Source: Candidatus Curtissbacteria bacterium RIFCSPLOWO2_02_41_11 (GTDB lineage Bacteria > Patescibacteriota > Microgenomatia > Curtissbacterales > GWA2-41-24). Taken from it: a stretch of 64,000 nt of DNA. A program made the position numbers and the translations under genes. Location of the stretch: NCBI GenBank assembly GCA_001775055.1, contig MFBU01000015.1, positions 4,487 to 68,486 on the forward strand, read 5' to 3'. This document shows, piece after piece, positions 32,947-33,893 of this stretch. Each line of letters starts with the position of its first letter. Positions within the stretch are counted from its first letter, which is position 1. Under the pieces are notes generated by a model. The model was not told the origin of the DNA and did not search any database. It saw only the letters and a list, made by a program, of their open reading frames with translations.

Positions 32947-33893
32947 TTTTGGAGGGCAAACATAACAATTTTATCCAATAACTTAGAGTAGGAAATTCCG
33001 ATTGAGGCGGCGGATTTAGGAAAAAGGGAAACTGGGGTTAGACCGGGAATAGTGTTAACCTCCAAAACATAGACATCATTATCTTTGGTAATCATGTCGA
33101 CCCTAGCAAAACCCCGGCAGCCAAGGGTTTGGTAGGCTAAAAGAGCTGTGTTTTGGGCTTTTTTGGTTAAGGACTTTCCGATTCTGGCCGGCACAATTTC
33201 ATCGCAGAGTTTCTCATCGTATTTAGCTTCGTAATCGAAATATTCTTTTTTAGGAACAATTTCGATCAAAGGCAGGGCTTGAGGACGATCATTGCCTAAG
33301 ATCGGACAAGTGATTTCAATACCGTCAATAAATTCCTCGACTAAAGTTAAGGGACTAAAACTAAAGGCTAAGTTTAAGGCTTTTTTCAAATGCTTCTTTT
33401 TGCTAACCTTGGTTGTGCCAACTGAAGATCCTTGATTGTGGGGTTTAACAAAAACGGGTGGTTTAAATTTATGCCAAATCGGTTTTAGTTGATCGTTCTT
33501 CTTTACAATAAGATGATTGGGTACTTTTAGACCTGCATGAGTAAATAATTTCCTTGAGGAAATTTTGTCCATACCTAAGGCTGAAGCTAAAACTTTCGAG
33601 CCGGTGTAAGGAACACAAATCAATTCCAAAAAACCTTGGATAGCCCCATCTTCTCCGTATGGACCATGCATGGCGATAAAAAACAATTGACAATTGACAA
33701 TTGACAATTGACTAAGAGGATATTTTTTATTATTTAACTGGAAAGAGATGCCGTCGTTGGAAATAATAATTGGTAAAACTTCATATTTATTGGGATCGAG
33801 ATTTTTAGCCACTTCCCTACCAGAAGCCAAAGATATTTCATGTTCGGCGGATTTACCACCCATAAGAACTGCCACTCTGATTTTTTTCTTCAT
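32943..33893 (-). CDS. ddl: D-alanine--D-alanine ligase
   Basis: It has an ATP-grasp fold with the EVNTIPG motif. It contains an in-frame heptamer-repeat tract. Confidence 0.85.
   Translation of the reverse strand: MKKKIRVAVLMGGKSAEHEISLASGREVAKNLDPNKYEVLPIIISNDGISFQLNNKKYPLSQLSIVNCQLFFIAMHGPYGEDGAIQGFLELICVPYTGSKVLASALGMDKISSRKLFTHAGLKVPNHLIVKKNDQLKPIWHKFKPPVFVKPHNQGSSVGTTKVSKKKHLKKALNLAFSFSPLTLVEEFIDGIEITCPILGNDRPQALPLIEIVPKKEYFDYEAKYDEKLCDEIVPARIGKSLTKKAQNTALLAYQTLGCRGFARVDMITKDNDVYVLEVNTIPGLTPVSLFPKSAASIGISYSKLLDKIVMFALQK

Follow-up and report, generated by a model that had tools for sequence, protein, structure and literature searches.

Heptanucleotides are the most abundant class of long simple-sequence repeats (SSRs) in most prokaryotic genomes, and polymerase slippage with a 7-nt contact has been proposed as their cause, according to Mrazek, Guo & Shah 2007 as summarized in PMC4679880 and PMC4692102. 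The arrays described here resemble the long SSRs of that study in that they consist of 7-nt tandem units, are over-represented compared to other unit lengths, and are patchily distributed over lineages. They differ in that the SSRs reported there come chiefly from organisms with large genomes (Burkholderia, cyanobacteria, Xanthomonas, actinobacteria), whereas our host has the small, gene-dense genome of a CPR bacterium. In addition, units that are not a multiple of 3 are given there as uncommon in genes, whereas the arrays analyzed here lie mostly within essential genes and are translated.

Further heptamer families are the cyanobacterial STRR, the TAACTGA arrays of Beggiatoaceae (PMC4679880), and the GGGNATC arrays of Xanthomonas and Nostoc (PMC4692102). 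These arrays typically have 2-6 units, and those of GGGNATC prefer 4 (PMC4679880, PMC4692102). They share with ours the short arrays, the occurrence of one unit at many unrelated loci, and the position of some arrays directly upstream of start codons. In contrast to ours, of which 10 of 13 are coding, they are mostly intergenic and scarce in coding DNA, and their genomes contain one or a few dominant units in tens to hundreds of copies instead of many different units in 64 kb. Since our units are not G-rich, G-quadruplexes cannot account for the preference for ~4 units. To our knowledge, no dispersal mechanism has been described for these families or for the arrays reported here. Within an ORF, the best comparison is the poly-psi domain of NeuO from E. 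coli K1, whose phage-borne neuO gene contains an AAGACTC VNTR in its 5' coding region (PMC3046976). As in our arrays, three units correspond to one 7-residue heptad, and the frame is kept only by multiples of three. However, neuO carries 2-93 copies, undergoes frequent on/off switching, and encodes a non-essential surface-modifying enzyme with disordered heptads (PMC3046976), whereas our arrays have 3-5 units, are constant in the assemblies examined, and lie mostly in essential genes, with the ddl array predicted to be ordered in the fold. A literature search combining CPR/Patescibacteria and heptamer repeats returned no paper linking the two, and heptamers are not mentioned by Lin & Kussell 2012.

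The window analyzed here is a 64-kb stretch of DNA from Candidatus Curtissbacteria (CPR/Microgenomates), an uncultured groundwater bacterium from the Rifle aquifer. Using Tandem Repeats Finder and a separate census of our own, we found 13 period-7 tandem arrays of ~3-5 units each, 10 of them genic and 3 intergenic, with none expected from shuffling. In a strict census (at least 3 units), there were 7 arrays of period 7 compared to 0.0 in 50 shuffles, while periods 5 and 8-12 yielded none and period 6 yielded one; the window thus carries head-to-tail 7-nt copies beyond chance length. A chance origin is ruled out by the shuffles and the comparison with other periods, and an assembly artefact by the identical arrays in independent ENA, JGI, and NCBI assemblies. 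Period 7 is also favoured over other unit lengths in close Microgenomates relatives (12 arrays in 165 kb, with periods 6 and 8-12 yielding none). In a set of mostly Firmicutes loci totalling ~1.1 Mb, period-7 arrays were confined to a single locus. Judged by the loci sampled, the arrays are a trait of the Curtissbacteria/Microgenomates lineage and are present in some other bacteria, too. An Rfam search of the window identified one tRNA and no other known RNA family.

The initial annotation had listed tracts in ddl, rsmH, ileS, glyQS, and two GT4 glycosyltransferase genes. The repeat census and the translations agreed with its coordinates for ddl, rsmH, and the GT4 gene at 59776-60972, and the peptides LSQLSIVNCQL, KKSQKLKAKSQKL, ETRNLKL, and ETRNPKL were all present in the translations; Tandem Repeats Finder recovered the tracts in ileS, glyQS, and the other GT4 gene (at 54550) and added one in a MurE-like gene. 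That the tracts are in frame in minus-strand genes, as was also pointed out, is correct but uninformative, since the minus strand carries nearly all genes of the window and every tract within an intact ORF is in frame. Although 10 of the 13 arrays lie inside ORFs, the density per kb is similar or higher intergenically (3 arrays in 8.1 kb of non-ORF DNA versus 10 in 55.9 kb of ORF DNA), a situation which the initial annotation itself had named as speaking against its reading. This intergenic density indicates that the period-7 arrays are a DNA-level property across the genome and are not targeted at genes; the intergenic arrays rule out a coding-specific phenomenon.

The ddl array (33683-33712; minus strand, like all features below) is a perfect (GTCAATT)x4.3 on the coding strand and encodes S61-L70 (SQLSIVNCQL). 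Tandem Repeats Finder reports it as (ACAATTG)x4.3 with 100% matches; the span 33685-33712 given initially denotes the identical array in a register that is 1-2 bases off. The array is unchanged in 14 strain contigs, and within the clade that bears it, ~70 ddl proteins were compared without any length variant being found. Against E. coli DdlB (1iov), the tract aligns without gaps ('lsqlsivncqlffiamhg' in the window, 'vtqlksmgfqkvfialhg' in 1iov), and a confident AlphaFold model shows it as a helix at 60-65 that leads via a turn into the first part of strand beta3 (70-73). Judged by alignment and model, the tract is not an insertion and represents a predicted ordered piece of the fold. The proposal that the tracts would map as inserts onto homologous structures did not hold up in general: this tract and the GT4 array at 60210-60247 align gap-free to homologues, and the offsets in RsmH and GlyQS are not 7 residues.

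Comparison of orthologous ddl arrays revealed concerted changes of the units. While the window and L105 contain (GTCAATT)x4, L107 has a perfect (GTCAACT)x4, L007 (GTCAACT GTCAAAT)x2, and L109 GTCAATT ATCAATT ATCAATT GTCAATT. The four base differences between the window and L107 all fall at one unit position (P = 5e-4). Codon-usage drift behind these parallel T/C changes is ruled out by the Leu codon CTG, which occurs only twice in L107 ddl, both times inside the array, and is unused elsewhere in the gene. L105 and the window match in 10 of 10 codons of the tract, compared to a baseline of 0.59 at conserved residues. On the ddl tree, the two unit types are scattered. The peptide SQLS[ITN]VNCQL is kept across many Curtissbacteria Ddl proteins. 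Among 80 ddl homologues, the linker (12.9 kb) holds 9 strong and 6 weak arrays, whereas the remaining 60 kb of ddl hold none. The L106 ddl array is split by a palindrome.

Other housekeeping genes carry comparable arrays. In rsmH, the array at 43826-43858 (x4.7; CCAAAAG CTAAAAG CTAAAAG CCAAAAG followed by AAAAG) encodes KSQKLKAKSQKL and is identical across 10 contigs; at the orthologous site, L009 and L107 have different heptamer units interrupted by GC hairpins, and the length difference to PDB homologues is 2-5 residues instead of 7. The glyQS array (47687-47718; (CAACTAC)-type x4.6) encodes YQLLTTNYQLL in the anticodon-binding domain; compared to 8sld, there are 3 extra residues at this position, not 7. 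The MurE-like gene at 39406-40611, named after the members of its protein cluster, contains a (CCCAAAT)-type array of 4.6 units at 39780-39810 that encodes KSQVPNPKSK. At the matching sites, L087 has CTACTCA units in glyQS and TTCACAG/TTTACAG units in the MurE-like gene, so that concerted unit changes are seen in these arrays as well. In ileS, array a (5200-5234; (CGGAAGT CAGAAGT)x2.5) encodes RKSEVGSQKSE; it is the same in 7 contigs and has no changes in L194, an allele of 90% identity. Array c (5852-5878; a perfect (AAGAGTC)x3.9) encodes RVKSQESRV and adjoins a palindromic insert at 5822-5851. A weak array at 5338-5360 ((AAAGGCG)-type x3.3, 81% matches) was reported by Tandem Repeats Finder only and is under the threshold of the strict census.

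The two GT4 genes are located in a surface-polysaccharide locus together with Wzy_C, GT2, PMT_2, and Bac_transf genes. The gene at 59776-60972 has two arrays, both identical in 8 contigs and in L195. Array 1 (60210-60247; AACCATA/AACCAGA x ~5) encodes TINHKPETRNLKL and aligns gap-free to 5i45; its start can be placed at 60210 or 60217, with 60247 as the end in both cases. Array 2 (60346-60378; AACCAGA AACTAGA AACTAGA AACCCGA) encodes NQKLETRNPKL. The second gene (54190-55329) contains (CAACTAC)x5.3 at 54547-54583, which encodes LTTNYQLPTTNY and has its unit in common with the glyQS array. In L195/P0144, this array has 2.3 instead of 5.3 units, i.e. 21 nt and 7 residues less, resulting in a protein of 372 instead of 379 amino acids (...LTTNYQ-------IEFLG). 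Over 10.5 kb, L195 shows no base difference to the window except in one short diverged patch, which ends at this array. The arithmetic put forward initially, according to which 3 units add 21 nt and 7 residues, is borne out by this natural allele.

Of the intergenic arrays, the one at 50325-50351 (GATACTA AATACTT AATACTC GATACT) lies just upstream of recO (49683-50309) and has units with stop codons in both orientations. A second one (52283-52303; GAAAACT GAAAATT GAAAATT) adjoins the ATG of a DUF4012 gene. The third, a (CTAATTT)-type array of 3.6 units at 53070-53096, is located between a manC-like gene and a Bac_transf gene, and its unit, read as AAATTAG, also forms intergenic arrays in L117 and L136. 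Another unit of L136, TTATCAG, was recorded as the reverse complement of TAACTGA, and units containing AACTG recur among our arrays.

One and the same unit was found at unrelated loci more often than expected: among 33 non-orthologous arrays, there were 9 pairs with identical units compared to 0.85 expected (P < 2e-4). CAACTAC, for example, is present in glyQS and in the GT4 gene at 54190-55329, and TTCACAG in three genes or species. A core motif GTCA/ACTG common to all units was considered and dropped, as its enrichment was inflated by the orthologous ddl arrays. Concerted change was also seen in GC-rich soil bacteria, with (GATCCAG)x4.6 versus CCGRACC. Moreover, the units avoid stop codons in a phase-dependent manner. 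T-bearing unit variants are absent at the phase at which TAA or TAG would be read in rsmH and in both arrays of the GT4 gene at 59776-60972: in rsmH, the T variant is missing exactly where an in-frame TAA would arise, and GT4 array 2 has C in place of T where TAG would fall in frame. Four of the 8 stop-free coding units contain a stop codon when read antisense.

The GC-rich palindromic insert in ileS (5822-5851) is an in-frame stretch of 30 nt, CCGCGAAGGGCGAGGCTCGCCAACGGCGGC, that encodes PRRARLANGG inside the array. The allele P0162 lacks exactly these 10 residues and represents the empty site, revealing a presence/absence polymorphism. A hairpin of ~30 nt with the core GGCGAGGCTCGCC lies within CAAAAGT/CAAGAGT-type arrays of three genes in three species, namely ileS of the window, rsmH of L009, and rpsK of L013, which are the only three coding-sequence copies of this family found in ~0.6 Mb. 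The hairpin at 5822-5851 is therefore repeated, is found in unrelated genes, and has filled and empty alleles, as is known for in-frame palindromic selfish elements. Rickettsia palindromic elements have reportedly been described by Ogata and colleagues in 2000 as selfish palindromic DNA lying in frame in protein genes. The hairpin, though not the arrays, resembles these elements as a repeated palindrome that is in frame in unrelated housekeeping genes and polymorphic for presence, but it has ~30 nt compared to roughly 100-150 nt, lies inside heptamer arrays, and was seen in a handful of copies. A 7-nt target-site duplication by the hairpin is unsupported; rsmH has 5 units both in L009, with the hairpin, and in the window, without it. 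Given these equal unit numbers and a clean insert of 30 nt that duplicates no 7-nt target, the hairpin seems to enter an array that is already present. A different palindrome splits the L107 rsmH array.

Phase or copy-number variation, which the initial annotation had suggested looking for in population data, was not seen in the 5-15 independent assemblies available per tract, and neither these assemblies nor the 90%-identity protein clusters contained an out-of-frame or +/-1-unit allele. The in-frame 3-unit GT4 allele is the sole array length variant in the strain contigs and clusters. Other length variants in the clusters are due to start-codon calls, to presence or absence of the hairpin, or to differences close to the C-terminus of ileS, away from the arrays. 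Recombination is frequent in this population.

We consider it probable, if far from certain, that the arrays are STRR-like heptanucleotide simple sequences which are made and homogenized by misalignment in a 7-base register and filtered by translation; we infer both the misalignment mechanism and the absence of a selected DNA-level function, whereas the period-7 excess, its distribution over lineages, the constancy of the arrays in the population, the 3-unit allele, the concerted change of units, the avoidance of stop codons, and the restriction to certain sites are direct results. Misalignment of the nascent strand and its template in this register during replication or repair would form the arrays and keep their units alike, with homogenization occurring as templated correction between adjacent units and with occasional gain or loss of units. 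Since 7 and 3 have no common factor, an array is read in all three codon phases and yields a peptide with a period of 7 residues. A unit variant giving rise to an in-frame stop codon is excluded at that phase, and the frame survives only length steps of 3 units (21 nt, 7 residues). Arrays would be tolerated only at permissive sites, for example in the Ddl linker that precedes beta3, in the loop of RsmH, and in loops of GT-B glycosyltransferases, and those in housekeeping genes would be old, fixed, and by now part of the folded protein.

Several observations sit uneasily with slippage. Simple local slippage does not predict identical units at unrelated sites, and it leaves unexplained the narrow range of ~3-5 units in coding and intergenic arrays alike as well as the location of an array within an ancestral, gap-free segment of Ddl. 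Slips by one unit, which would be lethal in ddl, ileS, or glyQS, should outnumber slips by three units. That perfect arrays have persisted in these genes therefore means that slippage is rare or that the arrays are beneficial. As ~70 ddl proteins show no length variant, homogenization at this site would have to act without length change. Frequent recombination could mimic part of the scatter of unit types on the ddl tree. It is conceivable, albeit unlikely, that the arrays are actively maintained by a dedicated 7-base-register process that keeps 4-5 perfect units at fixed sites of essential genes over long spans (for the Ddl linker, from CPR to GC-rich soil bacteria). Such a process may work with a small shared unit vocabulary, the ~30-nt palindromes may drive the evolution of CPR loops and linkers together with the arrays, and a cis-function in recombination, repair, or expression may be involved.

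We also weighed whether the arrays are selected cis-acting DNA or RNA elements, for example sites for a multimeric binder with one protomer per 7 bases, for which translation is a side effect and which could serve expression, recombination, or chromosome organization. In favour of such elements, the periodicity is held against codon usage, perfect arrays occur in orthologues at 70-80% protein identity, and the unit vocabulary is restricted and common to genes and species. The arrays at 52283-52303 and 50325-50351 end at or within ~10 nt of a start codon, the position of the TAACTGA arrays of Beggiatoaceae that have been proposed as regulator sites (PMC4679880). The uniform size of the arrays as a whole, ~4-5 units, recalls the preference of the GGGNATC arrays (PMC4692102), and the recombination patch ends exactly at one array. 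However, the units differ between orthologous ddl, murE-like, and rsmH sites, which does not fit a single sequence-specific reader, the restriction of ddl arrays to a permissive linker is predicted by a selection filter and not by a DNA-level function, and molecular drive alone can produce concerted evolution. On balance, we find this explanation doubtful. We know of no binding partner or phenotype for the arrays. Quite improbable, in our view, is that a small mobile palindromic element has left the arrays behind as footprints or uses them as preferred landing pads, with arrays and hairpin forming one mobile unit. This would account for identical units at unrelated sites and is consistent with the hairpin core inside the arrays of ileS, rsmH (L009), and rpsK (L013), with the other palindromes that split the L107 rsmH and L106 ddl arrays, and with the presence/absence polymorphism in ileS. 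Against it stand the absence of the hairpin from most arrays, the equal number of rsmH units in L009 and the window, the clean 30-nt insert, and the mere three coding copies; besides, arrays and hairpins may both just pile up in insertion-tolerant loops.

The coding geometry recalls NeuO (PMC3046976), and the two GT4 genes of the surface-polysaccharide locus, which belong to a classic phase-variation class, together account for three arrays, one of them with a 3-unit length allele. This might suggest phase-variable contingency loci in which one-unit slips switch a gene off or on and the number of heptads tunes its activity. Nevertheless, we regard this as very improbable, and for the housekeeping genes it is largely refuted: alleles that are out of frame or differ by one unit are absent at the level of the assemblies and clusters, the unit number of the ddl array is constant over the whole clade, the 3-5 units are few compared to neuO, and 7 of the 10 coding arrays lie in essential housekeeping genes in which the 'off' state is lethal. 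A location in a dispensable surface or virulence gene applies to the two GT4 genes alone; ddl, rsmH, ileS, glyQS, and the murE-like gene all have housekeeping roles. The conserved Ddl peptide and its ordered helix and turn in the model could also point to selection of heptad-like 7-residue peptides at the protein level, with the DNA repeat as a mere reflection, or the repeats could be due to chance or faulty assembly. These last explanations are extremely improbable and are contradicted by synonymous sites that are homogenized to otherwise rare codons (TTG versus CTG and AAT versus AAC shift in all units) and by the arrays in intergenic DNA; shuffles yield no arrays, and the independent assemblies agree.

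That heptanucleotides form the commonest class of long SSRs in prokaryotes was recognized in 2007. Arrays in essential, well-understood enzymes provide a clean natural experiment, because translation constrains every base and thereby makes DNA-level forces visible as concerted unit change, rare codons, and phase-dependent stop avoidance. They illustrate that microsatellites with units that are not a multiple of 3 can become fixed and built into folded protein segments, and that heptamer arrays can repeatedly give rise to variation in linkers such as that of Ddl in different phyla. As the in-gene heptamer repeats lack phase variation in these assemblies, annotators and population genomicists should not infer phase variation from such a repeat alone. 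Should the small set of units and the association with hairpins hold true genome-wide, they would hint at a hitherto undescribed process by which CPR bacteria generate repeats.

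Tandem Repeats Finder reported 15 period-7 rows in the 64-kb window. Our own census, with a threshold of at least three units, counted seven period-7 arrays compared to 0.0 in 50 shuffles, one array at period 6 and none at periods 5 and 8-12. Every heptamer tract named in the initial annotation was recovered by Tandem Repeats Finder, namely those in ddl (33683-33712, (ACAATTG)x4.3, 100% matches), rsmH (43826-43858, x4.7), ileS (5200-5234 and 5852-5878), glyQS (47687-47718) and the glycosyltransferase (GT4) genes at 54190-55329 (54547-54583) and 59776-60972 (60210/60217-60247 and 60346-60378), and the peptides quoted there are present in the translations. 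A further array, not named before, lies in the MurE-like gene (39780-39810). The claim that all arrays lie in genes has to be corrected, as three are intergenic (50325-50351, 52283-52303, 53070-53096), i.e. 3 per 8.1 kb of non-ORF DNA compared to 10 per 55.9 kb of ORF DNA; that the tracts are in-frame in minus-strand genes is uninformative, as almost all window genes are on that strand. Array size is narrow (~3-5 units) in genes and spacers alike. The heptamer tracts are genuine and non-random, and they are a lineage-level trait.

The host organism belongs to the CPR lineage Microgenomates, since proteins encoded in the window exactly match those of Candidatus Curtissbacteria bacterium GW2011_GWC2_38_9, GWA2_41_24 and RIFCSPLOWO2_02_41_11 and are present on many Rifle-aquifer groundwater metagenome contigs. 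Loci with a ddl at least 57% identical (165 kb) contained 12 period-7 arrays and none at periods 6 and 8-12, and loci with a 47-54% identical ddl (242 kb) contained nine, along with three at period 6 and one at period 8. In ~1.1 Mb of mostly Firmicutes loci, retrieved via metK and counted for period 7 alone, the sole array-bearing locus was L030, a contig of a MAG labelled Bacillota, with five AT-rich heptamer arrays in 14 kb (1896-13539), four of them outside any ORF of at least 80 aa. GC-rich non-CPR contigs also carry heptamer arrays. The period-7 trait is patchy between lineages, similarly to heptanucleotide long SSRs, whose patchy distribution is described in passages summarising Mrazek 2007 (PMC4679880, PMC4692102).

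The tracts had been regarded as inserts of seven residues. However, HMMER aligned the ddl segment 'nkkyplsqlsivncqlffiamhg' gap-free to 'dpkevdvtqlksmgfqkvfialhg' of E. coli DdlB (1iov) and placed the extra residues of Curtissbacteria Ddl relative to 1iov upstream of the tract. The array at 60210-60247 aligns gap-free to 5i45, while the rsmH tract adds five residues relative to 1wg8 and two relative to 1m6y, and the glyQS tract three relative to 8sld. In an AlphaFold2 model of Ddl from 41 homologues (mean pLDDT 90), the tract is predicted to cover helix 60-65, the following turn and the first part of strand 70-73 at a local pLDDT of ~94-96, suggesting that the ddl array is part of the fold. 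On the basis of these alignments and the Ddl model, the tracts are variable but native helix/loop segments and not clean 7-residue inserts.

Because 7 and 3 share no factor, successive units shift through the reading frame, and a given unit position serves in turn as the first, second and third base of a codon. In the rsmH array (CYAAAAG), the variable position reads C, T, T, C, and the two units lacking T are precisely those in which YAA forms a codon. Likewise, in the array at 60346-60378 (AACYAGA), units 1 and 4, in which TAG would fall in-frame, have C in place of T, and unit 3 of the array at 60210-60247 has G where T would create TAA. Of the eight stop-free coding units, four have stop codons in their reverse complement, so the choice of orientation is limited; units with stops in both orientations, e.g. 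AAATTAG, were seen solely in intergenic DNA. Among 80 ddl homologues, nine strong and six weaker arrays fall into the 12.9 kb of linker before the F-I-A-M-H-G strand, and no period-7 array was found in the remaining 60 kb of ddl. The rsmH site harbours arrays of three different units in the window and the contigs L009 and L107. The choice of array sites is filtered.

The SQLS[I/T/N/A]VNCQLFFIAMHG peptide is common to a large Curtissbacteria Ddl clade, down to ~63% identity, and none of ~70 clade members has one heptad more or fewer. The tract is a perfect (GTCAATT)x4 in the window and contig L105, a perfect (GTCAACT)x4 in L107, the L107 unit with one substitution in L108 and L110 and with two in L113, GTCAATT ATCAATT ATCAATT GTCAATT in L109, and (GTCAACT GTCAAAT)x2 in L007. 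The four differences between the window and L107 all affect one unit position (P = 5e-4); one replaces Ile by Thr, and the other three are synonymous. L107 ddl uses the Leu codon CTG just twice gene-wide, both times inside the tract. All ten tract codons are identical between L105 and the window; codon identity between species at conserved ddl residues outside the tract is 42-61%. T-type and C-type units are interspersed on the ddl tree calculated with the tract masked; this tree is rough, and recombination is common in the population. Concerted change was also seen in contig L087, in the MurE-like array (TTCACAG/TTTACAG compared to CCCAAAT-type units in the window) and the glyQS array (CTACTCA compared to CTACCAA), as well as in the Ddl linker of GC-rich soil bacteria, which carries a perfect (GATCCAG)x4.6, CCGRACC or a decayed version. 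Such linker arrays occur on the GC-rich non-CPR metagenome contigs L173 (9619-9650), L177 (1408-1439), L159 (10211-10241), L160 (455-485) and L181 (3703-3728); L173 additionally harbours an inverted pair of (CGTGATT) arrays at 3980-4067. Because orthologous units change in concert, synonymous sites included, a DNA-level process keeps array units alike. Protein-level selection cannot explain the synonymous pattern and was rejected as the cause.

In the 367-aa Ddl of L087, a 51-residue insert replaces the heptamer tract. Between L087, a co-occurring relative, and window positions 33700-53000, blocks of 100% identity alternate with blocks of 60-85% identity, which indicates that homologous recombination is frequent among aquifer Curtissbacteria populations. 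Phase or length variation had been considered for the arrays. Strain-level contigs were gathered via three neighbouring genes, and for each array the 5-15 independent assemblies spanning it all agreed in sequence and number of units. Members of the 90%-identity clusters of seven array-bearing proteins were inspected as well. Their length differences reflected start-codon calls or lay close to the C-terminus of ileS, outside the arrays; the GT4 allele P0144 and the ileS allele P0162 were the two exceptions. In P0144, KKLTTNYQLPTTNYKIEFLG is shortened to ERLTTNYQ-------IEFLG. Over 10.5 kb, its contig L195 departs from 100% identity with the window in a single diverged patch of ~100-200 nt (~75% identity; window 54584-54730, L195 8657-8760). 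This patch terminates precisely at the heptamer array in the GT4 gene 54190-55329. This array has 2.3 units in L195 compared to 5.3 in the window, a difference of 21 nt. Since the patch stops exactly where three units are missing, the array may mark a recombination or repair junction. The allele is direct evidence for the proposal that three units equal seven residues, and array length changes in this case in frame-keeping steps. No out-of-frame allele was found in the strain assemblies or the 90%-identity clusters, although consensus assemblies could miss minority variants in the two GT4 genes. A contingency model as for NeuO of E. coli K1 (PMC3046976) fails its defining test here, because no out-of-frame allele was seen and essential genes harbour seven of the ten coding arrays. 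The arrays are fixed and old, and they were not seen to switch.

Simple slippage leaves the sharing of units and the narrow array size unexplained. Among 33 non-orthologous arrays, nine identical-unit pairs were found compared to 0.85 expected from composition, a number not attained in any of 5000 simulations that gave up to eight or fewer. CAACTAC is shared by glyQS and the GT4 gene 54190-55329 in the window, TTCACAG by the L087 murE-like gene, L107 rsmH and a spacer of L119, and AAATTAG by three intergenic arrays. On account of the identical units at unrelated sites and the size of ~3-5 units, two rival explanations are retained, that the arrays may be a selected cis-element or that they may derive from a copying or mobile process. 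A similarly narrow size is known from GGGNATC arrays, for which a preference for four units was reported (PMC4692102). The G-quadruplex explanation is not transferable, since the present units are not rich in G. AACTG-containing units (AACTGTC, AACTGTG, AACTGAC, AAACTGT) recur at several unrelated sites, and the first unit at 14080-14100 of contig L136, TTATCAG, is the reverse complement of the TAACTGA heptamer that is repeated in Beggiatoaceae and cyanobacteria.

A 30-nt GC-rich palindrome, CCGCGAAGGGCGAGGCTCGCCAACGGCGGC (core GGCGAGGCTCGCC), lies on the minus strand inside ileS (5822-5851) and adjoins the array (AAGAGTC)x3.9; the allele P0162 lacks exactly its ten residues, PRRARLANGG. The core recurs within an (AAAAGTC) array in L009 rsmH (~755-790), a site with five units and no hairpin in the window, and within a heptamer array in the rpsK N-terminus of the Daviesbacteria contig L013 (~3975-4008). 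The element is inserted in-frame, as PRRARLANGG or PPKARLAKGG, in three housekeeping genes of three species. Other palindromes split arrays in L107 rsmH and L106 ddl. Since arrays with the hairpin have as many units as arrays lacking it, and no duplication of a 7-nt target can be seen, the hairpin is probably not the origin of the arrays. We interpret it as a putative small selfish insert, in-frame, that would invade arrays already present or permissive loops shared with them. One intergenic copy of the core (GCCGCCTTTGGCGAGCCTCGC, 14620-14650), followed by a T-run and adjoining a second palindrome (TTTTTAACGTATTTGACGTAAAAA), is kept with its flanks in a relative (L109, around 18586); it has no Rfam match and looks like a terminator.

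Additional features were observed in the dcw cluster. Upstream of mraZ (44032-44430), four ATGGTGA/ATGGTAA boxes with 10-nt spacing directly follow a TTGACA hexamer (44553-44590); these boxes very likely form the operator for MraZ at the promoter of the dcw cluster. Two intergenic arrays of a 9/18-nt unit containing GGTAC (AAGAGTACCACGAGTACC; 24076-24117 and 30321-30356, also 30289-30302) are oppositely oriented, each a short way upstream of the start of a gene, and may be operator sites. A 666-aa gene (37416-39416) with Pfam matches to NTP_transferase/IspD and Mur ligase domains is an unusual fusion within the cluster.

Overall, the tracts are probably heptanucleotide simple-sequence (STRR-like) arrays, for which misalignment in a 7-base register would both generate the arrays and homogenise their units, while translation would filter them. 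The heptanucleotide repeat as a kind is already known. What is new here is that such arrays sit within essential genes of a CPR bacterium, evolve in concert at fixed sites, avoid stops according to codon phase, and turn up again in the Ddl linker of distant bacteria.
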